DNA of 64,000 nt from Bacteroidota bacterium (GCA_002748065.1 PDRJ01000025.1:22454-86453), one strand, 5' to 3'. Positions 16-61,225 are shown, numbered from the stretch's first letter. Notes: generated by a model not told the origin, from the letters alone. Program-made: numbers and translations.

Positions 16-741
16 TTGAAAGTAACTGTTTATATAGAAGATAAAATAAAAAGATTGCCAAGGGGATATGTTTTTACCTATGAGTGGTTTGATATAGATG
101 TGAGAAAAAAACAAGCCTTAATTAAAGCACTTAACCGAATGGTTGATGCCAAGAAACTTTCCAAATTATCCAAAGGAAGATATTTTAAGCCTGAAACAAC
201 GCCTTTTGGTAATCTTCAGCCAAGCCAGGAACAAGTGGTTAAGGATTTGCTATATAATAATGGGAAAATTGTTGGTTATTTTACGGGATATAGTATCTAT
301 AATAAATTGGGACTTACAAGTCAGGTCAGTAATAGCATACAAATTGGTAAAAATGAAATTCGTCCGGAGTTCAAAAGGGAACGTTATACCATATCTTTCG
401 TAAAACAAAAAAATGTGATTACGAAGAAAAATATTCCGCTGTTACAAATTCTAGATGCTATTCGGTATATTAAAAAAATTCCTGATACAACCATAGAAAT
501 CTCTTGTTTGCGTTTGCTGGAAATTATCAAATCATTAAATGATGATAATAAAAAAGACTTAGTACGACTCTCTTTGAAATACCCACCTTCAACGCGAGCT
601 TTATTGGGTGCGTTATTAGAAGAACTGCAAGAGGGGTCGATAACTGAAATTTTGAGAAAATCGCTTAACTCAATTACGCAATACAAAATCCCAGAAGTAA
701 CCAAGGTTTTAACAAAAAGCAGTGGTTGGAACATTGTATGA
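16..741 (+). CDS. AbiEi-like antitoxin (DUF6088-like, putative transcriptional regulator of type IV TA system)
   Basis: 241-aa ORF directly upstream of, and overlapping, an AbiEii-family gene. The N-terminus IEDKIKRLPRGYVFTYEWF resembles AbiEi/DUF6088 N-terminal wHTH regions. TTG start at 16; in-frame stops at 7-12 exclude a longer N-terminus. Confidence 0.6.
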   Translation: MKVTVYIEDKIKRLPRGYVFTYEWFDIDVRKKQALIKALNRMVDAKKLSKLSKGRYFKPETTPFGNLQPSQEQVVKDLLYNNGKIVGYFTGYSIYNKLGLTSQVSNSIQIGKNEIRPEFKRERYTISFVKQKNVITKKNIPLLQILDAIRYIKKIPDTTIEISCLRLLEIIKSLNDDNKKDLVRLSLKYPPSTRALLGALLEELQEGSITEILRKSLNSITQYKIPEVTKVLTKSSGWNIV

Positions 742-1724
742 AACTTCATTTACATAAAAACTTATTTAGACAAGCAGTGCAATTTACTGCTGACCAAATG
801 CAAATTCCTGTTATTTATGTTGAAAAGGATTATTGGGTAGCTTATGTTCTTTATACTATTTTTCAGCACGAAATCGGAAAAGAAACTATCTTTAAAGGAG
901 GAACTTCATTGTCAAAATGTTACGATCTGATTGAACGATTTTCGGAAGATATAGATTTAGTGGTTCTGAAAAAGGAAACTGATACGAATAACCAACTTAC
1001 AAAAAAGATAAAAACAATTGGTAATGTTGTTAGCAAGGTATTGCCTGAAGTTGAAATAGTCGGTTTAACACATAAAAAGGGAATGAACCGAAAAACGGCA
1101 CATTCCTTCAATAAAGAGTTTCAAGGTGATTATGGACAGGTGAGAGATATAATCGTGATTGAGGCGACTTGGTTTGGACATTATGAGCCTTATACAACCC
1201 GAAAAATTTCTTCTTTGATTGGAGAAATGATGGTAAAAAATAATCAAGAAGAAACGGCAAAAGAATATGATTTACTTGCCTTTCCCGTTTTTGTTTTAGA
1301 GCCGATAAGAACGATGTGTGAAAAGATAATGAGTTTAGTTCGGTTTTCGTATAGTGAAAATCCGATGAGAGATTTAGCGAGTAAAATCAGGCATATATAC
1401 GACTTAAACCAACTGCTGTTAGATCAGGATTTTTTGGGATTTTTTAATTCTGCTGCGTTTGATCAAATGCTTTTGAAAGTGGCGCAAGATGATGTTGTAA
1501 GCTTTAAAAATAATCATGAGTGGTTGCGAAATCATCCGGCAAATTGTTTGCTCTTTGAACATATAGAAAAAGTGTGGGAAGACTTAAAAATAACCTATAA
1601 TTCAGCGTTTAGAAATTTGGTTTATGGTGCTTTCCCTGATGAAAGGGAAATACTAAATACATTATTCTTCTTAAGAAATCGGTTGGAGAAAATTGAGTGG
1701 AGCTTTCATGATATCTTAGGATAA
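738..1724 (+). CDS. AbiEii/AbiGii-family nucleotidyltransferase toxin
   Basis: The motif KGGTSLSKCYDLIERFSEDIDLVV is the GG(T/S)xL...(E/D)DIDL nucleotidyltransferase signature of the AbiEii (DUF1814) family. ATG at 738 overlaps the upstream stop as ATGA (738-741). The ORF track offers a TTG at 726. Confidence 0.8.
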   Translation: MKLHLHKNLFRQAVQFTADQMQIPVIYVEKDYWVAYVLYTIFQHEIGKETIFKGGTSLSKCYDLIERFSEDIDLVVLKKETDTNNQLTKKIKTIGNVVSKVLPEVEIVGLTHKKGMNRKTAHSFNKEFQGDYGQVRDIIVIEATWFGHYEPYTTRKISSLIGEMMVKNNQEETAKEYDLLAFPVFVLEPIRTMCEKIMSLVRFSYSENPMRDLASKIRHIYDLNQLLLDQDFLGFFNSAAFDQMLLKVAQDDVVSFKNNHEWLRNHPANCLLFEHIEKVWEDLKITYNSAFRNLVYGAFPDEREILNTLFFLRNRLEKIEWSFHDILG

Positions 1725-1794: not shown

Positions 1795-1860
1795 TAGAGG
1801 CTGTTTGGAAAGTCCGACTTCTTCGTTATGCTTCTCTTCAAAATGGTTGTTTTAGCCCGA
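1795..1860 (+). repeat. Diverged copy (C) of the R1 MITE-like repeat, 5' part
   Basis: tagaggctgtttggaaagtccgacttcttcgttatgcttctcttcaaaatggtt aligns with the first ~65 nt of R1 (tagaggctgtctataaagtccgacttcttcgttacgcttctcttccaaatggtt). Weaker similarity (tcgaatacgttcg) continues to about 1950. Confidence 0.6.
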
Positions 1861-1961
1861 TAGTGTTCCCCCAAGTGTGTCTGGAGGGGCTTTCTTGATC
1901 GAATACGTTCGTCGGGGTTGGGGGTCCACAATAGCTGCTCTTAAGCAGATTGGGTAAGCAT

Positions 1962-2025: not shown

Positions 2026-3939
2026 CTACTTCACCTCTTCAAAGTCCACGTCAGTGACCTCATCGCCACCTCCCTGAGCTTTTGATTGTGAGGTATCCGG
2101 GTTGGGGTTAGGCTGCTGCCCTCCCTGTTGTGCCTCTTGTGTTGCCTTGTAGATCTCTTCACTGGCAGCCTGCCAAGCACTGTTTAGCTTCTCGCTGGCA
2201 GCGTCAATGGCCGTCAGGTCTTGTGCCTTATGAGCCTCTTTGAGCTCGGCTAAGGCTGCTTCAATGGGCGCCTTCTTCTCTGCCGGAACCTTGTCGCCAT
2301 ACTCTTTCAGCTGTTTCTCTGTTTGGAAAATCAGCGCATCGGCATTGTTGATCTTATCGATTTTTTCCTTCTCTTTCTTGTCCGCTTCGGCATTGGCTTC
2401 CGCTTCCGCTTTCATCTTGTTGATCTCCTCTTCGGAGAGGCCGGAGGAGGCTTCAATACGGATGTTTTGCGATTTACCGGTTCCTTTGTCTTTGGCGGTT
2501 ACATTGAGGATTCCGTTGGCATCAATGTCGAAGGTTACCTCAATTTGAGGGATCCCTCTTGGAGCGGGGGGGATGCCGTCAAGGTGGAAGCGGCCGATAC
2601 TTTTGTTTTGGTTAGCCATGGGGCGCTCCCCCTGGAGGATGTGAATCTCCACAGAGGGCTGGTTATCCGCTGCGGTAGAGAAGACCTCTGATTTTTTCGT
2701 AGGGATGGTTGTATTGGACTCAATGAGTTTGGTGAATACGCCTCCCAGGGTTTCAATACCCAGTGAGAGGGGCGTTACATCCAGCAGGAGAACATCTTTA
2801 ACCTCTCCGGTGAGGACTCCTCCCTGGATGGCAGCACCTACGGCCACAACTTCATCCGGGTTAACGCCTTTGGAGGGCTTCTTTCCGAAGAATTTCTCTA
2901 CCACTTCCTGGATAGCCGGGATACGGGTGGATCCTCCCACGAGAATCACTTCGTTGATATCCGATGCGGACATGCCGGCATCAGCCAGGGCTTTTTTACA
3001 GGGTTCGATGGTGGCACGGATCAATGAATCAGCCAGTTGTTCGAACTTCGCCTTGGAAAGTGTGCGGACGAGGTGTTTGGGAATCCCGTTTACCGGCATG
3101 ATATAGGGAAGGTTGATCTCTGTCGTATTGCTGCTGGAGAGTTCAATCTTGGCCTTTTCTGCCGCCTCTTTCAGGCGTTGCAATGCCATGGGATCCTTGC
3201 GCAGGTCGATGTTCTCGTCTGCCATAAACTCCTCTGCCAACCAGTCGATAATGACTTGGTCGAAGTCATCACCACCCAAGTGGGTATCTCCATTGGTGGA
3301 TTTTACTTCAAAAACGCCATCACCCAATTCCAGGATAGAGATATCGAAGGTTCCTCCTCCAAGGTCGAAAACAGCGATTTTGATGTCGCCCAGCTTTTTA
3401 TCCAGGCCGTATGCCAGGGAAGCAGCCGTGGGCTCGTTGATGATGCGGCGCACCTTAAGTCCTGCAATCTCGCCGGCCTCTTTGGTTGCTTGACGCTGGG
3501 AGTCGGAGAAATAGGCAGGAACGGTGATAACCGCCTCGGTAACCTCTTGTCCCAAGTAATCTTCGGCTGTTTTCTTCATCTTTTGAAGAACCATGGCGCT
3601 GATCTCCTGGGGGGTATATTTACGATCTTTGATCTCCACACGAGGCGTGTTGTTATCGCCTTTGACCACCTTGTAGGGAACTCGGTTAACCTCTTTGGAC
3701 ACTCTGTCAAAGGTCTCTCCCATAAACCGTTTTATGGAGAAGATGGTTTGTTGTGGATTGGTAATGGCTTGACGCTTTGCAGGATCTCCCACTTTACGTT
3801 CTCCATTTTCCGTGAATGCGACGATGGAAGGCGTGGTTCTACGTCCTTCCGAATTTGGAATTACCACCGGTTCGTTACCCTCCATTACAGAAACGCAAGA
3901 GTTGGTTGTTCCCAAATCAATGCCAATAATTTTTCCCAT
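2026..3939 (-). CDS. dnaK: Molecular chaperone DnaK (Hsp70)
   Basis: 637 aa. [24 protein letters not shown] and the full Hsp70 architecture are present. Confidence 0.98.
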
Positions 3940-51341: not shown

Positions 51342-52028
51342 ATGAAAAAAATGTTCCTTTTCGTCGGTTTGCTTGTTTTGACGACGGTAATTAGTGCACA
51401 AAACATTCAATTACATTATGATTTTGGTGAGGGAAGAAAGCTTTTTACCTCTACCGTTGAGATGTTTAAACCGGATAGTTACGGTGCTACTTTTTTCTTT
51501 ATAGATATGGATTACAGCGCTTCTGATCGGAATGTGGATAACGGCATCTCGTTGGCCTATTGGGAGATCGCCAGGGCGTTCAAATGGCGTGAAAAACAGA
51601 CCTTGATGCCTCGTGTGGAGTACAATGGAGGTACCTTCAAACTTGATGGGGTGGAGACAGGCTTTATTCCCATTGAAAATAGTTGGCTGGTCGGGGTTGA
51701 AAATACCTGGGCCTCCAGTGATTATTCCAAAATAGTTACCTTGATTGCCAACTATAAATACATTCAAGGCAAAGAGAACCTCTCTTTCCAGCTTACGGCC
51801 GTATGGACCCTTAAGATGCTGGCTGGAAAACTTACCTTCAACGGCTTTGCCGACTTTTGGAAAGAGGAGATGTTTTGGGGAACCGATTTTCGTTTCTTGA
51901 GTGAACCACAACTTTGGTACAACTTCAATGACCATTTTTCTCTCGGGGGAGAGGTGGAGTTAAGCAATAACTTCATTGGTGATAAATTTGCCGTCAATCC
52001 CACCGTGGGGGTGAAGTACGTTTTCTAA
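51342..52028 (+). CDS. Small outer-membrane beta-barrel, Tsx-like / DUF5020-type (putative nucleoside channel)
   Basis: 228 aa with a signal peptide. NIQLHYDFGEGRK...FFFIDMDYS, alternating beta-strand pattern and a C-terminal aromatic residue (KYVF). Family assigned from memory. Confidence 0.55.
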   Translation: MKKMFLFVGLLVLTTVISAQNIQLHYDFGEGRKLFTSTVEMFKPDSYGATFFFIDMDYSASDRNVDNGISLAYWEIARAFKWREKQTLMPRVEYNGGTFKLDGVETGFIPIENSWLVGVENTWASSDYSKIVTLIANYKYIQGKENLSFQLTAVWTLKMLAGKLTFNGFADFWKEEMFWGTDFRFLSEPQLWYNFNDHFSLGGEVELSNNFIGDKFAVNPTVGVKYVF

Positions 52029-52044
52029 CCTTAAATGCATAGCA

Positions 52045-53337
52045 ATGTTTGAAAAATTCTTTAAACTCAAAGAGAGTGGTACTACCGTAAGAACCGAGAT
52101 TCTTGCCGGTATCACCACATTTATGACCATGGCCTATATCCTGGCGGTAAACCCGGATATTTTGAGCAGTACCGGTATGGATAAGAATGCGCTGTTTACC
52201 GCTACTGCGCTCTCTGCTTTTATTGCAACGATGGTGATGGCCTTTGTGGCTCGACTTCCTTTTGCGTTAGCACCGGGTATGGGACTGAATGCCTTCTTTG
52301 CCTTTACCGTGGTGTTGGGCATGGGATACAGTTGGCAGTTTGCCCTGACGGCGGTGTTCTTAGAAGGAATTATTTTTCTTATTCTTACCCTGTTTAATAT
52401 CAGGGAGTTGATTGTAAATGCCATTCCGCTCTCCCTGAAGCATGCGGTATCGGCAGGTATTGGCCTGTTTATTGCCTTTATCGGCATGCAGAATGCCGGT
52501 ATTATTGTTAATAATGATGCCACATTGGTATCGTTGGGCGATATGGGATCCGCCCCGGTGTTAATCGCCATTGGAGGCGTGATCCTCATGGCAGTACTCC
52601 TTATCCTCAAGGTGAAAGGGGCTTTGTTGATCGGTATTTTTGCGGCCACCGTTGTGGGCATCCCCTTGCATGTGACCCATCTTCCTGAGGGAAGCCTGAT
52701 TACCTTACCACCCTCTTTGGAACCCACCTTCTTCAAATTTACGTTTGAGCATATCTTCTCTTTGGATATGCTGGTGGTGTTCTTCACCTTCCTGTTTGTG
52801 GATATGTTTGATACCGTGGGAACCCTGGTGGGGGTCTCTTCAAAAGCGGGAATGTTGGATAAAAAGGGGCGTGTGCCACGGGTGAAGCAGGCTTTCCTGG
52901 CTGACTCCATCGGAACCTTTGTTGGCGCTATTTTGGGAACAAGTACGGTGACCACCTATGTGGAGAGTGCTTCCGGCGTTTCGGAGGGCGGACGGACCGG
53001 CCTTACCTCTTTCGTTACAGGGCTTTTCTTCCTGTTAGCGCTGTTTTTTGCGCCACTGTTTATCATGGTACCCCCATCTGCTACGGCTCCGGCACTGATA
53101 CTGGTGGGTTTCTTTATGATGTCACCCATTCTTAAGATTGATTTTAATAACTATACGGAAGCGATTCCCGCTTTTATCACCATTCTTGTTATGCCGTTGA
53201 CTTATAGTATTGCGGAAGGAATTGTTTTTGGGATGCTCTCTTATGTGTTGTTAAAGCTGCTTACCGGGAAGTTTAAGGATCTCTCTTTGGTGATGATTAT
53301 TTTGGCCATCCTTTTCCTTTTGAAGTTCCTGATTTAG
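52045..53337 (+). CDS. NCS2-family purine permease (AzgA/PbuG-like adenine/guanine/hypoxanthine transporter)
   Basis: 430 aa with TTVRTEILAGITTFMTMAYILAVNP and ALAPGMGLNAFFAFTVV, both typical of the family. Confidence 0.9.
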   Translation: MFEKFFKLKESGTTVRTEILAGITTFMTMAYILAVNPDILSSTGMDKNALFTATALSAFIATMVMAFVARLPFALAPGMGLNAFFAFTVVLGMGYSWQFALTAVFLEGIIFLILTLFNIRELIVNAIPLSLKHAVSAGIGLFIAFIGMQNAGIIVNNDATLVSLGDMGSAPVLIAIGGVILMAVLLILKVKGALLIGIFAATVVGIPLHVTHLPEGSLITLPPSLEPTFFKFTFEHIFSLDMLVVFFTFLFVDMFDTVGTLVGVSSKAGMLDKKGRVPRVKQAFLADSIGTFVGAILGTSTVTTYVESASGVSEGGRTGLTSFVTGLFFLLALFFAPLFIMVPPSATAPALILVGFFMMSPILKIDFNNYTEAIPAFITILVMPLTYSIAEGIVFGMLSYVLLKLLTGKFKDLSLVMIILAILFLLKFLI

Positions 53338-53390
53338 GAGAAGTAAGGAGATGATGAAGACCGCTGGTTTTTTTACCAGCATAAATGCAT

Positions 53391-53456
53391 AAAAGCGAGA
53401 AGGCTTACTGCCGGTACCCTATCGGGGAAACTCTGGCAGCAAGCCTTCTCGCTTTT
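53391..53456. terminator. Long bidirectional hairpin between permease and osmC (convergent)
   Basis: aaaagcgagaaggcttactgcc ... ggcagcaagccttctcgctttt: a 22-bp stem with one G-U position, a 22-nt loop, and A/T tails within the stem ends. Confidence 0.7.
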
Positions 53457-53477
53457 ATTAAACAATATCCTAATGGA

Positions 53478-53906
53478 TTAAGCTAATAGCGTTTTGATGA
53501 CACTTTGGCCGACGATATTATCGGCAACGGGACATCTTTTTCCGATTTTTTCAATGAACTGTTGCTTCTCTTCGGTTGTCATGTCTGCATCCACATTTAC
53601 GTGAAGTCTGATCTCTTGAAAACCGGCTCTTCCCTCTTCTGTTTTTCCCAGTAGAAACTCTTTATCGATATCACCCTCTACAACTACGTCGATCATCTTT
53701 ACGTTGAGACGCTCTTGTCTGGCGATAATCCTTCCAATGGCACAGATACATCCGCCCAGGGAGGAGAGAAAAAATTCAAGAGGGTTGGGACCCATATCGG
53801 ATCCTCCCATGGGTTGGGGTTGGTCAATGACAAAGGGGTGTGAGCAAGTAACATCCGTTTTGAACCCTTCGTTCACTTTGGTTTCGACCTTCATTGTTGT
53901 TGTCAT
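53478..53906 (-). CDS. OsmC-family peroxiredoxin-like protein
   Basis: 142 aa. GPNPLEFFLSSLGGCI, plus a second Cys in KRCPVADN. Confidence 0.85.
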   Translation of the reverse strand: MTTTMKVETKVNEGFKTDVTCSHPFVIDQPQPMGGSDMGPNPLEFFLSSLGGCICAIGRIIARQERLNVKMIDVVVEGDIDKEFLLGKTEEGRAGFQEIRLHVNVDADMTTEEKQQFIEKIGKRCPVADNIVGQSVIKTLLA

Positions 53907-54214
53907 ATTCGTATGTTTTATAAGGTTTATTGTGCAATATTACGATATAATATGTGATTTCAGCGGCTTTTTTATGGATATTTTTAGGGTTTGTTATATC
54001 CTCTTTTTTGCATATTTAATTGCCTCTCCTTTTGAGGGTTACGGTGTGGGTAAGGGGTGGCTGTTTTTTTTAGGAAGCAGAAGGGTAGAGAGGGTGGTGT
54101 AGGGTATGGCATCGTCGCTCTCGTTGCACCCCTGAAGAAAAGAAAAAGAATGGGGGAGGGAGAGGGTTGCTGTATCCGAAAAAGTTCTTATCTTGGGAAA
54201 AAATAAGATTGATT

Positions 54215-55597
54215 ATGAGTTATCGTGAAGTACAAGATACCATGGGGGTGATGCATGTTCCTGAGGCGTGTTATTGGGGAGCACAGACCCAACGTTCGTT
54301 GGAGAATTTTAAGATTGGCCAGGAGAAGATGCCGCTGGAGCTGCTCTATGCGCTGGTGTTGGTGAAAAAAGCCTCAGCCATGGCGAACCATGAGCTTGGA
54401 AAGTTGGAGCTGGAAAAGCGTGAGCTGATTGTGGAGGTGTGTGATGAGATTCTTGCCGGTCGCCATGATGCCCACTTTCCCCTGCGGGTATGGCAGTCGG
54501 GTTCCGGCACACAAACCAACATGAATGTCAATGAGGTGATTGCCTTTAGGGGTAATGTGTTGGCCAACGAGAGGGGGATCTCGGTACGGCTTCATCCCAA
54601 TGATGATGTAAACAGTTCTCAGAGTACCAATGATACCTTTCCCTCGGCCATGCGAATTGCTGTGTACACCCTTATCACCGGGAAATTAATCCCTGCGCTC
54701 TCTCTCCTGGAGGAGGAGCTTCACCGGAAGGCCCTTGCCTTTGCTGCCATTGTGAAGACGGGACGAACTCACTTAATGGATGCTACTCCCCTGACCCTGG
54801 GGCAGGAGGTTGACACCTGGGCATCGCAACTTTCGCACGGGCTCTCCCGTCTACGGAAGATCATGGCATCTCTCCTGGAGCTTCCGCTGGGTGGTACCGC
54901 CGTAGGCAATGGTCTCAATACTCCGGAGGGTTATGATGGGGTGGTGGTTCGCTATGTGGCGGCCCTGTCGGGTGTGCCGTTTCTCCCTGCCCCGTCTAAG
55001 TTTGAGGCCATGGCCTCCCACGACGCCCTGGTGGCATGTCATGGTGCCTTGAAAGGCCTTGCCGTGAGCCTTATGAAGATCGCCCATGATGTCCGCTTGT
55101 TGGGCTCTGGCCCGCGTTGCGGCATTGGAGAACTTCGTTTCCCTGCCAATGAACCGGGCTCCAGCATCATGCCGGGGAAAGTGAACCCCACCCAAGCCGA
55201 AGCACTCTCCATGGTGTGTGTACAGGTGATCGGCAATGATACAGCCGTCTCTTTGGCCGGAGCAAATGGCCATTTACAGCTGAATGCTAATGCTCCGGTG
55301 ATCATCCTCAATATGATCCACTCCATCAACCTGCTCTCCGATGCGGCCGACTCCTTTGCGCGAAAGGTGGTGGTAGGACTGGAGGCTTCCCAGGAGAAAA
55401 TCACCGAACATCTTAATAATTCATTGATGCTTGTGACCGCTCTCAACCTCCATATCGGGTATGAAAAGGCGGCGCAGGTTGCCAAACTAGCCTTCGAGAA
55501 ACAACTCACCTTAAAGCAAGCGGCCATGCAGCTGGGGTATCTCTCAGAGGAAGCCTTTGACCGGATTGTGGACCCCAGGAAAATGGCAGGCTTGTAA
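54215..55597 (+). CDS. fumC: Class II fumarate hydratase
   Basis: Start at MSYREVQDTMG. WQSGSGTQTNMNVNEV and GSSIMPGKVNPTQAEAL are FumC-type rather than AspA-type. Confidence 0.92.
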   Translation: MSYREVQDTMGVMHVPEACYWGAQTQRSLENFKIGQEKMPLELLYALVLVKKASAMANHELGKLELEKRELIVEVCDEILAGRHDAHFPLRVWQSGSGTQTNMNVNEVIAFRGNVLANERGISVRLHPNDDVNSSQSTNDTFPSAMRIAVYTLITGKLIPALSLLEEELHRKALAFAAIVKTGRTHLMDATPLTLGQEVDTWASQLSHGLSRLRKIMASLLELPLGGTAVGNGLNTPEGYDGVVVRYVAALSGVPFLPAPSKFEAMASHDALVACHGALKGLAVSLMKIAHDVRLLGSGPRCGIGELRFPANEPGSSIMPGKVNPTQAEALSMVCVQVIGNDTAVSLAGANGHLQLNANAPVIILNMIHSINLLSDAADSFARKVVVGLEASQEKITEHLNNSLMLVTALNLHIGYEKAAQVAKLAFEKQLTLKQAAMQLGYLSEEAFDRIVDPRKMAGL

Positions 55598-55598
55598 A

Positions 55599-55772
55599 TA
55601 GAGTCCGTCTATAACGTCCGACTTCTTCGTTACGCTTCTCTTCCAAATGGTTCTTTCGGCTTTGCTCAACACATCGCATTTACCCTAGTAAACTCCCCTA
55701 TTTCAGCCTTCGCAAGCCTCGAATTCGAACGTTCTATACAGCCTCTTCTCAAAACGCTGACTTTATGGACAG
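55599..55772 (+). mobile_element. R1 MITE-like repeat, copy A (174 bp)
   Basis: Aligns without gaps to the reverse complement of 58842-59015, with 9 mismatches in 174 and the last 86 nt identical. 14-bp terminal inverted repeats (c)CGTCTATAACGTC / GACTTTATGGACAG. No ORF. Confidence 0.7.
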
Positions 55773-57379
55773 TCTTGTGGGGTAGAGGAAGAGACGGGGA
55801 TCGTCCGCACGGGGAGATAGACCATTCCTTTACAGAGGTAAACATACTTTTTTTTGGCAATCTTTCGGCCTCGCCTGATGCAGATGGAGTCATAACAGGT
55901 GATCTCTTTAAAAAGTCCCTTGTACTGAGTATCTGGTTTGAAGTAATCCTGAGGGTCGTGGATGGCCCAGCCATTCATCCCCCTTTGGAAGGGGCCTCGC
56001 TCTTCGTTGATCCAGGCGTATTTGTGGAGTCTTGGCAGGAGGTTTATTCCCATTACCTCGATGCCTGCGTCGTGCGCAAAATAGTATTCGTAGTTGGCGG
56101 CGGGAAACCAACGGTGTGAAAAGATGGGCGCCTCTGCTTCCATCACTCCCTCTGCAAGAGCTCTTTGTCGAATTGCGCGAAACTGTCGTCCCTCTTCATC
56201 CCAGCCGTAAAGGTCGAGTGTGGGATCCGGAAGGTGGTAGGTGGTTAAGGGGATAAAACCGGTTTTGATCTGAATCCAGGAGACGGTTAAAAACAGACAT
56301 AGTGAGAGGAGAGCGGTGCGAATCCCCCGGGGAATAAGGTTGTGGTTTTGCTGTTTCCAATGATCAAAACGGCAGGCTGTGAGGATCATCAGGGGGAAGA
56401 ATGCCGGACCCGTCCAATGGGGAAGGGTTCGCCTTGAGAGGGCTATGCCCCAAAAGAGCAGTATCATGGGGATACTCAGCAGCAGAAGGAGCCGCTGCGT
56501 GTTTTTGGGACAAAAGGATTTTCCTCTTACGAGATGGATCAGGGTGATCACCATCAGCACCACCACCACCGGATTGTTGTAGAAGAATTCGCCCACGATC
56601 TCCAGCAGAAAAAAGTCCAACCGGATACCCTCAAAGGTGGCCCTGCTGCCCTGAAAGGTGAAGCTGACAAAATGATACTGCCTATTCCAGAGGATCACCG
56701 GGGAGAAGAGAAGGAGGGAGAGAAGTCCTGAGAGGTAGAGGGCAATCTTCTTTAACCAGGGCCTGTTGTAAAGTAGCACGTACAATCCGACCCCCGCCCA
56801 CAGGTAGGTGGCTGTATACTTTGAGAGCATCCCCAGGCCGGTGAAAAGGCCAGCCAATAGCATCTTCTTTCCCGCTCCTCGCTCTTCCGGGTTCCCGGTA
56901 AGCGGATCGTGAAAGAAATAGAGCGCCGCAAGCCAGAAAAGCATCTGGGGCGCATCAGGAAGGATGAAGAGCCCCGCAATGATGGAGGCATAACCCGAGG
57001 CCGAGAAGAGCAATGCCGCATAAAAGCCGGCTCTGGGGGAACGGATTTTTTCCGTTAAGAGGTAGAGGAACCAGGTGGCTCCAGCAGCTGATAAAATGGC
57101 GCTGAGACGGATGAAAATCTCGTGGCGTAGAAGCAAATTCAGGGAGGAAAGTTGAATAAATAGCCCCGTCATCGGGGGATGGTCGAAGTGGCTCCAGTCG
57201 GGAAACATGGCGTAAAGGATGTAATAGACCTCGTCATTGCCAAGATCCGTAGTCGCCGCTGGAAAGAGCTTAAGAAGGAGAGCCAGCCCTATCACCACCA
57301 GGGTTAACCGACGAAATCGTTTCCGTTGCTGATCTTTTTTTATCGCCATGTGATCCATGTTCAATTCTCCATTCGTCAT
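55763..57379 (-). CDS. GT-C fold glycosyltransferase, family 39 / ArnT-PMT-like
   Basis: 538 aa, polytopic. The first loop carries LGNDEVYY (DE motif) followed by FDHPPM, typical of ArnT/PMT_2 enzymes. The start (57379 or a downstream ATG) is uncertain. The last three codons (TGT CCA TAA) lie inside R1 copy A. Confidence 0.85.
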   Translation of the reverse strand: MTNGELNMDHMAIKKDQQRKRFRRLTLVVIGLALLLKLFPAATTDLGNDEVYYILYAMFPDWSHFDHPPMTGLFIQLSSLNLLLRHEIFIRLSAILSAAGATWFLYLLTEKIRSPRAGFYAALLFSASGYASIIAGLFILPDAPQMLFWLAALYFFHDPLTGNPEERGAGKKMLLAGLFTGLGMLSKYTATYLWAGVGLYVLLYNRPWLKKIALYLSGLLSLLLFSPVILWNRQYHFVSFTFQGSRATFEGIRLDFFLLEIVGEFFYNNPVVVVLMVITLIHLVRGKSFCPKNTQRLLLLLSIPMILLFWGIALSRRTLPHWTGPAFFPLMILTACRFDHWKQQNHNLIPRGIRTALLSLCLFLTVSWIQIKTGFIPLTTYHLPDPTLDLYGWDEEGRQFRAIRQRALAEGVMEAEAPIFSHRWFPAANYEYYFAHDAGIEVMGINLLPRLHKYAWINEERGPFQRGMNGWAIHDPQDYFKPDTQYKGLFKEITCYDSICIRRGRKIAKKKYVYLCKGMVYLPVRTIPVSSSTPQDCP

Positions 57380-57441
57380 TGCCAGTTGCTTCGCAAACTT
57401 TGAGTTTCATCCGTCTGTATCTTAATAGCCGTTGGCTATTG

Positions 57442-57591
57442 GCCTTTAGTTTGGGTTAATGGCAACGTTCACAAAAAGTTATCACTCAACTTCCGTCTTC
57501 CGACTTCTGTCTTCTGTCTTCGGACTTCGGTCTCCCGACTTCCGACTTCCGACTTCATTACCATATCGCCGCATTATCACATTACCACATT
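57442..57591 (-). repeat. R2 composite repeat, copy 1
   Basis: Read on the minus strand: TGGTAATGTGATAATGCGG, then 10 heptads, then TTTTTGTGAACGTTGCCATTAACCCAAACTAAAGGC. The last block matches 61190-61225 at 33 of 36 positions. Confidence 0.65.
57490..57559. repeat. Imperfect 7-bp tandem array, 10 units (CTTCCGA consensus)
   Basis: cttccgt cttccga cttctgt cttctgt cttcgga cttcggt ctcccga cttccga cttccga cttcatt. Confidence 0.85.
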
Positions 57592-57616
57592 AAAAAAATT
57601 ACTAATTGCTAATTCC

Positions 57617-58747
57617 CTATCGGTAGAAGTCGAAAATTGCCTGGATCACATAATCGATCTCCTGTTCCGTTAAGGCGTAGAAAAGGGGCAATCGGATAAG
57701 GGCCTGAGAGAATCGCTCCGCATGGGGTAGCGAGGAGGTGCCGTATGTTCGGCGGTAGTACGGACTGTGATGCAATGCCTGGTAGTGGAAAACTGCCTGG
57801 ATCCCCCTGCTATGCAGATGGTGAAGAAGCCGATCTCGCTCTTCTCTTGATTTGGCTACCATATAAAAGAGGTGTCCGTTAAGGCTGGCAAAAGCGGGAA
57901 GTTGGGGCAATAGAAGGTTTTCGCGTTCTTGCAGCGGCCTGAGCCCGCTGGCATAGCGTTCCCAATGGCGAATCCTTCGTGCCTGAATGGGGTCAACCTC
58001 CTCCATTTGAGCACAAAGGCACGCTCCGGTGAGGTCGGAGGGAAGGAAGGAGGAACCCACATCAACCCACTCATACTTTTGCACCTCTTTGCGCTGAAAG
58101 GCTGCTCTGTTAGTGCCCTTCTCCCAGATGATCTCTGCCCGTTCACACAGGCGCTCGTCGTTAACGAGCAGCATGCCTCCCTCTCCGGTGATGATGTTTT
58201 TTGTTTCGTGGAATGAGAGCGCTCCGAGCTGCCCAATACTTCCCAGGGGTTTGCCCTTGTACGTTGCTTCAATGCTGTGGGCAGCATCTTCCACCACCTT
58301 CAGGCCGTGGGCTTCAGCAATGGCAAGGATGGCCTCCATATCGTTGGCTACACCGCCGTAGTGCATAACCAGGATCGCTTTGGTTTGGGGGGTGATCAGG
58401 CGCTCCAATGTGCCAATATCCATGTTGGGATGCTCTGGCATACTGTCAACGAAGACCACCCTGGCACCCCGCAGCACAAAGGCGTTGGCCGAGGAGACAA
58501 AGGTGTAGGACGGCATGATGACCTCGTCACCCGGCCCGATCTCAAAAAGGAGAGCCGCCATTTCCAGGGCATCGGTGCAACTGGTGGTGAGCAGGCTCCT
58601 GGTCACGCCATACCGGTTACAGAATAGCGCTTGGGCGCGCCGTGTGTAGGGACCATTGCCCGAGAGTTGCCCCTGCATGGCCGCCTGTACAAGGTATTGT
58701 TGTTCCTTTCCGGTGAAATGAGGCTTGTTGAACGGTATCTGCATCAT
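57617..58747 (-). CDS. DegT/DnrJ/EryC1-family PLP aminotransferase, WecE-like (dTDP-4-amino-4,6-dideoxyhexose synthesis)
   Basis: 376 aa. MMQIPFNKPHFTGKE, SCTDALEMAALL, IMPSYTFVSSANAFVLRGARVVFVD and SFHETKN (PLP lysine) closely recall E. coli WecE/RffA. Confidence 0.88.
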   Translation of the reverse strand: MMQIPFNKPHFTGKEQQYLVQAAMQGQLSGNGPYTRRAQALFCNRYGVTRSLLTTSCTDALEMAALLFEIGPGDEVIMPSYTFVSSANAFVLRGARVVFVDSMPEHPNMDIGTLERLITPQTKAILVMHYGGVANDMEAILAIAEAHGLKVVEDAAHSIEATYKGKPLGSIGQLGALSFHETKNIITGEGGMLLVNDERLCERAEIIWEKGTNRAAFQRKEVQKYEWVDVGSSFLPSDLTGACLCAQMEEVDPIQARRIRHWERYASGLRPLQERENLLLPQLPAFASLNGHLFYMVAKSREERDRLLHHLHSRGIQAVFHYQALHHSPYYRRTYGTSSLPHAERFSQALIRLPLFYALTEQEIDYVIQAIFDFYR

Positions 58748-58765
58748 CCCCTATCCTTTTTTAGA

Positions 58766-58773
58766 CAAAGGTA
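58766..58773 (-). promoter_or_regulatory. Candidate -7 promoter box (TACCTTTG) for the aminotransferase gene
   Basis: TAnnTTTG match on the minus strand, 18 nt upstream of the ATG at 58747, between R1 copy B and the gene. Confidence 0.4.
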
Positions 58774-58841
58774 ACGCTTTTCCCCCTCTCGTTTCATGAT
58801 TGCATGAAAAAAACCTACGGCGTTTAGCCGCTATACTAGTG

Positions 58842-59015
58842 TCTGTCCATAAAGTCAGCGTTTTGAGAAGAGGCTGTATAGAACGTTCGAATTCGAGGCT
58901 TGCGAAGGCTGAAATAGGGGAGTTTACTGAGGCAAATGCGATGTATTGAGCAACGCCGAAATAACCATTTGGAAGAGAAGCGTAACGAAGAAGTCGGACT
59001 TTATAGACAGCCTCT
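58842..59015 (-). mobile_element. R1 MITE-like repeat, copy B (174 bp, inverted relative to copy A)
   Basis: Reverse complement equals copy A at 165 of 174 positions. TIRs CTGTCTATAAAGTC / GACTTTATGGACAG pair over 14 bp (one G-T position). No ORF. Confidence 0.75.
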
Positions 59016-59069
59016 ATGCTAGCCGCTAACTGTGAGGGGTTGGTCTCTACAGCACAACCGATTTCGTGG

Positions 59070-59109
59070 CCGCATTATCACATTACCATATTATCCCCAT
59101 TATCACATT
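59070..59109 (-). repeat. GTGATAATG-motif block (19-nt identity with 57569-57587)
   Basis: CCGCATTATCACATTACCA is identical at 59070-59088 and 57569-57587. A second cattatcacatt follows at 59098-59109, directly after the era stop. Confidence 0.6.
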
Positions 59110-59113
59110 GTCT

Positions 59114-59989
59114 TTAAATCTCATACCCAAACCGTTTCAAATACTGCTCGTTGTCACGCCAGTTTTTAAGCACCTTTACCGTGACCTCCAGAAAGGCCTT
59201 TTTCCCGGTAAACTGTTCGATCTCTTTCCGCGCCCTGCTGGCCACCCGCTTCATGGCTTGCCCCTCTTTGCCCAGCAGAATCATCTTTTGAGACTCCCTC
59301 ACCACGTAGATGATGGCCGTGATTCTGTCGATGGTTGCTTCTTCCTTATATTCCGTAATGGCCACTTCGCAGGAGTAGGGGATCTCCTTTTTGTAATAGG
59401 TGAGGAGTTCACCTCGGATAATCTCCGACACAAAGAAGCGCAACGGCTTATCGGTAAGCTCCTCTTTGCCGTAATAGGGCGGGGATTCCGGTAGGTTCTC
59501 CAGCAGAAATTGAGAGATGGACTCCACGTTGAATTTGTGTTGTGCTGATATGGGGATAAGATGGCTCTGGGGCAGTAACTCCTGCCAGTACCGCATCTCC
59601 TCCATCACCCTCTCCTGTTTATGCAGGTCAATCTTGTTTAATGCAATGACGAGGGGTACCTCGGTTTTCTTGAGCCTCTCCAACACTTGCTCCTCCAGCG
59701 TGCGGTCGCCGGTTTCCACCACCAACAGGAAGAGATCCGCATCGGTGAAGGCTCCCTCCACATAGTTCATCATTGATTGTTGTAAGGAGTAGGCCGGTTT
59801 CAACATGCCCGGCGTGTCCGAGTATACAATTTGGTAATCCTCCCCATTTACGATGCCCATGATGCGATGGCGGGTGGTTTGTGCCTTTGCATTAGTGATG
59901 GAGAGGGTCTCCCCAATCAAGACATTCATCAGGGTTGACTTTCCCACGTTGGGTTTTCCTATGATATTGACAAATCCGGCTTTGTGCAT
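59114..59989 (-). CDS. era: GTPase Era
   Basis: 291 aa with G1 GKPNVGKST, G3 DTPG, G4 NKID and a C-terminal KH domain. Confidence 0.95.
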   Translation of the reverse strand: MHKAGFVNIIGKPNVGKSTLMNVLIGETLSITNAKAQTTRHRIMGIVNGEDYQIVYSDTPGMLKPAYSLQQSMMNYVEGAFTDADLFLLVVETGDRTLEEQVLERLKKTEVPLVIALNKIDLHKQERVMEEMRYWQELLPQSHLIPISAQHKFNVESISQFLLENLPESPPYYGKEELTDKPLRFFVSEIIRGELLTYYKKEIPYSCEVAITEYKEEATIDRITAIIYVVRESQKMILLGKEGQAMKRVASRARKEIEQFTGKKAFLEVTVKVLKNWRDNEQYLKRFGYEI

Positions 59990-61115: not shown

Positions 61116-61225
61116 AGTGTGATTATGCATGAAGAAATGGAGTTGGAAGTCGGAAGTCGGAAGACGGAAGACGGGAGTTGGAAGACAATTTTTTGTGAAC
61201 ATTGCCATTAACCCAAGCCAAAGGC
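61116..61225 (+). repeat. R2 composite repeat, copy 2
   Basis: GTGTGATTATGC, then 7 heptads, then TTTTTGTGAACATTGCCATTAACCCAAGCCAAAGGC. It has the same module order and the same orientation relative to the downstream gene as copy 1. Confidence 0.65.
61137..61185. repeat. Imperfect 7-bp tandem array, 7 units (CGGAAGT consensus)
   Basis: atggagt tggaagt cggaagt cggaaga cggaaga cgggagt tggaaga. This is the reverse-complement register of the 57490-57559 array. Confidence 0.8.

Follow-up and report, generated by a model that had tools for sequence, protein, structure and literature searches.

Two inverted copies of a short repeat bracket a pair of glycan-modification genes in a 64,000-nucleotide (nt) stretch of DNA from a Bacteroidota bacterium (GCA_002748065.1 PDRJ01000025.1:22454-86453), hereafter the window. 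The enclosed genes encode a GT39/ArnT-like glycosyltransferase (GT39) and a WecE-like aminotransferase (wecE), and they lie between fumC and era. [quoted passage not shown] The evidence comes from membership in the family, the terminal repeats, the target duplication, the intergenic distribution of the copies and the ancestral gene order at the locus. An original prediction, made from the window alone, had called the element MITE-like and had proposed three readings of the bracket: a transposase-less cassette mobilised in trans, a site of recombination or inversion, or a repeat family with a role at the RNA level. The label proved right, and none of the three readings finds support in the analysis below.

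An inverted-repeat search of the window returns two arms, 55598-55772 (+) and 58843-59017 (-), which are 175 nt long, 95% complementary and separated by 3070 nt. Compared directly, the arms differ by nine mismatches, all in the outer 89 nt, and are identical over the inner 86 nt, as had been predicted; their similarity ends abruptly on either side. A 35-nt core occurs exactly twice in the window and not once in 100 shuffles. The element copies in the window and the target-site sequences next to them are as follows:

55601..55772, plus strand: MITE copy A, the 174-nt variant, with its head GAGTCCGTCTATAACGTC on the fumC side and its inner end truncated.
55595..55600, plus strand: target-site hexamer TAAATA, on the left side of copy A; it opens with the stop codon of fumC.
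58839..59014, minus strand: MITE copy B, 176 nt, complete, with its head GAGGCTGTCTATAAAGTC at 59014 and its tail GACTTTATGGACAGACAC at 58839.
59015..59021, minus strand: TAGCATA, the half of copy B's target-site duplication that adjoins its head.
58832..58838, minus strand: TAGTATA, the half of the same duplication that adjoins the tail, 6/7 identical to the head-side half.
1795..1862, plus strand: third family copy, partial, with the head only (model positions 1-68).

Copy A lacks the terminal ACAC (the last 4 nt of the element) and the second copy of its target duplication. The third copy, ~90% identical over 1795-1852 in a low-stringency BLAST of the element against the window, lies in a convergent spacer between ORFs (open reading frames) at 726-1724 (+) and 2026-3939 (-). 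The two flanks of copy A look alike, reading CTTGT-aaa-TAGAG on the left (55590-55604, which includes the element head) and CTTGT-gggg-TAGAG on the right (55773-55789). This likeness may be a coincidence, or it may be a trace of the event that removed the inner terminus of copy A.

The element is far from confined to the fumC-era locus, as the original prediction had allowed it might be. An iterated nhmmer search over metagenome loci from the PDWI01 and PDWJ01 assemblies together with the window (292 kb in all; loci outside the window carry L numbers below) returned at least 56 distinct copies or fragments, 36 of them full-length, and the outer-arm 24-mer occurs in at least 30 stretches on ~20 contigs of the two assemblies. 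Family copies are 90-97% identical to one another. The canonical unit is ~150 nt long, and both copies in the window are of a 174-nt variant, into which 25 nt have been inserted internally. Family units range from 147 to 219 nt, well under 500 bp and too short to encode a transposase; Pfam matches between the arms are limited to GT39 and DegT, and the claim that the element has no coding capacity is borne out. A longer variant of 216-219 nt carries a 69-nt internal insertion (AAAAATAGTGCAAACCGAATGCAAAAGTAAGCTTGCTTATATTTTGCTGAGGTGCAGCCTATTTTATGTA) and is found at L010:6446-6663, L011:4641-4859, L023:3899-4116 and L029:7559-7774; L021:911-954 is a truncated derivative of this ~218-nt variant.

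Alignment of the flanks of 35 distinct full copies gives the profile TA-nn-TA, G.GTCYGTCTATAAMGTCCGACTTC ... GCTGACTTTATGGACAGACAC, TA-nn-TA, in which the element proper has the ends G.GTC...ACAC. The terminal inverted repeats had been put at 14 bp; they exist, and their real extent is ~18-20 nt (GAGTCTGTCTATAAAGTC versus the reverse complement of GTGTCTGTCCATAAAGTC). Across the 35 copies they are conserved as GAGTCYGTCTATAAMGTC and the reverse complement of GACTTTATGGACAGACAC, which match at 16-17 of ~18 positions. The variable bases of the flanking TAnnTA agree between the two sides at 39 of 70 positions, compared with 24.6 by permutation (p=0.0002). Perfect hexamer pairs are frequent (TATGTA, TATTTA, TAAATA, TAACTA, TAATTA and TACTTA), and one flanking pair reads GAATTA/GAATTC. 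Two tandem dimers contain copies exactly one hexamer apart. The simplest reading of these data is a 6-bp target-site duplication with a preference for TAnnTA targets. We rejected a 2-bp (TA) duplication of the IS630/Tc1 type because the variable dinucleotides co-vary and the dimers are spaced by exactly six bases. The dimers themselves (L002:4227-4530 and L003:3450-3748) are head-to-tail, with one TAnnTA hexamer between the copies, and are 90.8% identical to each other over 293 bp, which may mean that the dimer was copied as one piece or that the element favours existing duplications as targets. Being multi-copy, non-coding and intergenic, with terminal inverted repeats and a target-site duplication, the element fits the structural definition of a prokaryotic MITE (PMC10969869, PMC4596501).

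Copies of the family lie almost without exception between genes (48 of the 49 scored copies fall between long ORFs) and occupy every class of intergenic region. Twenty-four are within 50 nt of a gene 3′ end, 17 of these no more than 10 nt from the stop codon, and only five are within 50 nt of a gene 5′ end. The TAnnTA target overlaps TAA and TAG stop codons, so copies accumulate in short spacers 3′ of genes; this overlap, together with selection against promoter disruption, explains the 3′-end preference. Orientation with respect to the adjacent gene is unbiased (10 copies on the same strand versus 14 on the opposite strand, p=0.54). Among 22 pairs spaced 0.3-6 kb apart, 12 are direct, five tails-out and five heads-out, the window pair being one of the last. 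The three heads-out pairs examined among the other four enclose unrelated genes, as the density of the element by itself would lead one to expect: a Crp-type regulator and a type IX secretion system (T9SS)-sorted protein in one, SDR and Big_5 proteins in another, and ABC-F and Fic proteins in the third. By a rough estimate, the chance that some two among three copies in 64 kb would lie within 3.4 kb of each other is ~0.3.

Gene order in relatives that lack the element indicates that wecE and GT39 were on site before the elements came. The genes at the window locus, with one putative regulatory feature, are:

54167..55597, plus strand: fumC (class II fumarate hydratase), the ancestral neighbour, convergent with GT39.
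55763..57379, minus strand: GT39/PMT_2 (ArnT-like) glycosyltransferase, with a C-terminal tail unlike that of its relatives, ending inside copy A.
57617..58747, minus strand: WecE-type dTDP-4-amino-4,6-dideoxy-sugar transaminase (DegT family), by NCBIfam match.
58807..58831, minus strand: terminator-like hairpin (58831-58817) and T-run between copy B and wecE, a consensus match only.
59114..59989, minus strand: era GTPase, the upstream neighbour, on the same strand as wecE-GT39.

Domain searches of the ORFs thus agree with the prediction as to the two enclosed genes and to fumC and era outside them, and the product of 57617-58747 passes the NCBIfam WecE equivalog cut-off (515.6 bits versus 375). 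In five relatives (L032-L037; GT39 54-65% identical), a gene of 405-409 amino acids (aa) is followed by GT39 and then by a convergent gene, which Pfam identifies as fumC in L033, L034, L035 and L037. In L034, L035 and L037, whose gene calls are clean, the GT39/fumC spacer is 0-48 nt long, whereas the corresponding spacer in the window holds a 172-nt element, a difference that is indirect evidence of mobility; in L033 the called GT39 and fumC overlap by ~120 nt. The locus continues as SIR2-RecX-RF-RuvA-SprA in L034, L035 and L037, as it does in the window. In L033 a DegT gene, 67% identical to the wecE of the window, lies upstream. The relatives' loci contain no copy of the element at nhmmer E<=10. 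The original prediction had asked whether the two genes come and go as a unit, and this comparison of the fumC-era region goes against that: GT39-fumC is kept in five relatives free of the MITE, and wecE is upstream in L033.

The two copies also appear to have separate histories. Copy A is 97.3% identical to the copy in L013 and 96.0% identical to L024:672-845, with which it shares an identical 25-nt insert, but only 94.8% identical to copy B. The insert of copy B resembles that of L029:12558, and the 25-nt inserts of A and B represent different sub-lineages. The outer flanks of the pair differ (TAAATA versus TATGCT), and copy B is flanked by a duplication that is its own, TAGCATA/TAGTATA. The inner 86 nt, identical in both arms, are essentially the family consensus, and hence provide no evidence of gene conversion between the arms. 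In the mechanism that we favour, the element inserts into TAnnTA and duplicates those six bases, and would be mobilised in trans by a DDE-type transposase presumably encoded elsewhere in the genome. Copy A would have entered at the fumC stop codon (TAA-ATA), within the very short spacer between the convergent fumC and GT39, and copy B would have entered the era-wecE spacer.

Several points weigh against this explanation. No autonomous insertion sequence with matching ends was found in the 292 kb, and mobilisation in trans is accordingly a supposition. A fuzzy search of the same 292 kb found no repeat-end-like sites outside MITE copies, and all-versus-all BLAST of the loci returned assembly overlaps, a 255-bp tandem repeat and the MITE dimer and nothing else, the overlaps being the sole repeats longer than 300 bp. 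Neither an empty site nor an insertion polymorphism is seen, the comparison being between only two near-identical assemblies of the organism: exact-protein look-ups of wecE and era lead to the same two contigs only (that of fumC returns no record), and the second assembly of the locus (L001, 16.4 kb) differs from the window by one heptamer only. For copy A, whose inner terminus and second duplication copy are missing, the case for an independent insertion is built on sequence relatedness only. That the metagenome contigs and the window come from one organism is an assumption. Finally, a stable stem-loop transcript, which is typical of MITEs but not defining, is not predicted here, as the element folds no better than its shuffles. 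Two candidates for a longer partner element were set aside on inspection: in L003, a head fragment and a tail fragment separated by 4 kb have RNase Y and MnmA between them, and an apparent head inside an ORF in L021 is the truncated 218-nt variant described above.

The insertions probably had local effects. Copy A fills nearly all of the fumC/GT39 spacer and holds the last three codons of GT39 together with its TAA stop (55763-55765). The GT39 tail (55763-55800) reads ...LPVRTIPVSSSTPQDCP, compared with an IPDWxQTI-x(1-4) ending in relatives. This divergent tail, which ends inside copy A, indicates that the GT39 C-terminus was remodelled, either by the insertion or by a subsequent deletion at the inner end of the copy, altering the last ~10-15 residues.

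Of the other explanations, selection of the repeat family for a role in regulation or at the RNA level fares best, although we consider it very improbable. The element would then act as a terminator, a processing site or a small RNA, or it would form a long duplex between the 5′ and 3′ parts of an era-wecE-GT39 read-through transcript. The core (CCTTCGCAAGCCTCGAATTCGAAC) and the first ~45 nt are indeed highly conserved across copies, but recent amplification explains this conservation equally well, given the 90-97% identity of the copies. The preference for gene 3′ ends (24 copies versus five at 5′ ends, within 50 nt) would suit such a role but is accounted for by the TAnnTA target and by selection against promoter disruption. 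The copies show no strand bias relative to the adjacent genes. The consensus fold of 23 copies reaches −4.4 kcal/mol, consists essentially of the terminal repeats and contains one compensatory pair, and single-copy folds have z scores of +1.3 and −0.02 relative to shuffles. An Rfam scan of the window reports only a tRNA at the gathering threshold and nothing relevant at E<=1. As for the duplex, minus-strand read-through would carry copy B in sense and copy A in antisense. At 58773-58766, starting point for wecE being an ATG 19 nt further downstream, is a TACCTTTG box that fits the Bacteroides −7 promoter consensus, TAnnTTTG, and is a candidate wecE promoter. If it is, the wecE-GT39 transcript would start without copy B, and the duplex idea would be weakened.

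Inversion of the bracketed segment is a further explanation, and one that we rate as highly improbable. Recombination between the 175-bp arms, either homologous or site-specific, would flip 3.07 kb, moving wecE-GT39 from downstream of era to downstream of fumC and producing phase variation of a surface glycan modification. At 95% identity, with 86 identical bases, the arms are long enough for RecA-dependent recombination. Once flipped, the operon would again run in the same direction as a gene upstream of it, and GT39 would keep its stop codon, since this is inside the identical part of the arms. However, both assemblies have the locus in a single orientation, the ancestral one with GT39 convergent with fumC, and the identical 86 nt essentially match the family consensus and are no evidence of gene conversion. 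In addition, the sequence downstream of copy B appears to give wecE a terminator-like and promoter-like context of its own. The genes called across 17 kb around the locus (RecQ, DUF4296, a thioredoxin-like protein, era, wecE, GT39, fumC, OsmC, a permease, DUF5020, SIR2, RecX, RF, RuvA and SprA) include no recombinase, integrase or invertase. In an exceedingly unlikely variant, the MITE pair would have been co-opted as a RecA-mediated switch that places wecE-GT39 under era-driven or fumC-driven transcription with no dedicated invertase. Were this variant true, phase variation of a surface-glycan modification would have been created purely by two MITE insertions.

Least likely of all is a composite, transposase-less unit of 3.4 kb in which the MITE copies serve as ends and wecE-GT39 is cargo moved in trans, on the model proposed for the MITE-flanked integrons of Acinetobacter: MITE-flanked gene mobilisation is documented (PMC10969869) and the inverted, heads-out copies enclose exactly two functionally related genes, but the five element-free relatives keep GT39-fumC and L033 has wecE upstream, no target-site duplication is shared around the whole unit (TAAATA versus TATGCT) while copy B shows one that is its own, A and B each have closer kin elsewhere than in each other, and heads-out pairs are as frequent as tails-out pairs, the three examined among the four others enclosing unrelated genes.

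The locus holds other repeats and differences in gene content. A second intergenic repeat family in the same genome occurs at 57444-57556 (+) and 61141-61222 (-) of the window, at L008:4570-4596 and at L024:120-556. Its unit consists of CCTTTRGYTTGGGTTAATGGCAAYGTTCACAAAAARTT followed by a tandem heptamer array (CCGACTT/CCGTCTT), and the L024 stretch comprises four tandem copies with a period of ~255 bp, adjoining a MITE copy. The one-heptamer difference between the window and L001 is an extra CCGACTT in the GT39-wecE tandem array of the window (~57536-57556), and reflects either a copy-number polymorphism or an assembly difference. Octamer-like (CATTAYCA)n repeats lie at 57556-57592 and 59066-59110, and a 25-nt sequence (GCCGCATTATCACATTACCAYATTA) is common to the GT39-wecE and copy B-era spacers at 96% identity.

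The 405-409-aa gene of the relatives, which has a weak match to a CehA/McbA metallohydrolase domain and overlaps the start of GT39, is missing from the window. A 237-bp spacer (57380-57616), made up largely of the second repeat family and simple repeats, stands in its place between wecE and GT39, and tblastn finds no remnant of the gene in the window. Three extra genes (OsmC, xanthine/uracil permease and DUF5020) lie between fumC and SIR2 in the window (~52000-54100) relative to L034, L035 and L037, and L035 has an AbiEi/AbiEii pair between SIR2 and RecX.

The original prediction had not recognised the element as any described Bacteroidota repeat, and our searches agree. The most conserved 24-mers of the outer arm and core have no exact match among 185,579 species representatives, a collection that apparently does not include the genome of the window organism, and viral contigs, plasmids and phages likewise contain no match to the element. 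A literature search for the accession numbers found no paper. The absence of a match in the genome, viral, plasmid and phage collections searched leads us to regard the family as undescribed. Its description adds a high-copy MITE family, with a TAnnTA target, 18-20-bp terminal repeats, length variants and tandem dimers, from an uncultured lineage of Bacteroidota, a phylum with few characterised MITEs. The locus illustrates that element density can mimic the geometry of a composite transposon, and copy A has rewritten the end of GT39, its last codons and its stop codon. The family is also likely to break contigs and cause mis-joins in assemblies of this organism. Proof that the partner transposase belongs to a new type, or that the inverted pair does invert, would make the result more significant.

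Comparison with known systems places the family among small non-autonomous repeats. Correia (Neisseria), RUP (pneumococcus) and ERIC elements fold into long hairpins, and Correia and RUP duplicate TA; the element described here, unlike these, has short terminal pairing only and a 6-bp TAnnTA duplication. It resembles them in being a high-copy, intergenic sequence of 100-200 nt that often abuts genes (PMC10969869), and in occasionally changing gene ends or expression. The bracket recalls the MITE-flanked integrons of Acinetobacter, whose flanking MITEs are identical, the same ones being found around cargos that vary from host to host (PMC10969869). There too, two copies of one MITE surround a small gene set with no transposase inside. 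Unlike the Acinetobacter units, however, the copies here are 94.8% identical and closer to others than to each other, copy B has its own duplication, and the enclosed genes are syntenic in element-free relatives.

Within the same phylum, the MITEs of Porphyromonas gingivalis (MITEPgRS/MITE464 and BrickBuilt) derive from the IS5-family elements ISPg1/ISPg4 (PMC4596501). The terminal repeat here starts with GAGTCTGT, and that of ISPg4/MITEPgRS with GAGACTGT, a match at seven of the first eight bases (PMC4596501). As in P. gingivalis, the same genome also has a second repeat family with a tandem, minisatellite-like array. Unlike in P. gingivalis, the ends differ past eight bases, the internal sequence is unrelated and no IS5-family partner was found in the sequences searched here; we do not assign the 6-bp TAnnTA duplication to the IS5 family. 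We therefore treat the resemblance of the ends, a likeness of sequence, as a lead.

Prokaryotic MITEs in general differ from this family, which has no predicted stable hairpin, is not AT-rich relative to its own genome and has no parent insertion sequence among the loci searched. Its closest counterparts in overall organisation are nevertheless MITEs such as Chunjie of Geobacter uraniireducens, known from full copies of 178-235 bp and 57 partial ones (PMC10969869), and QMITE1/2 of Coxiella burnetii. Like these, it is small, non-coding and intergenic, carries terminal inverted repeats and direct repeats, and is present in tens of copies (PMC10969869), with length variants and many truncated copies among them.

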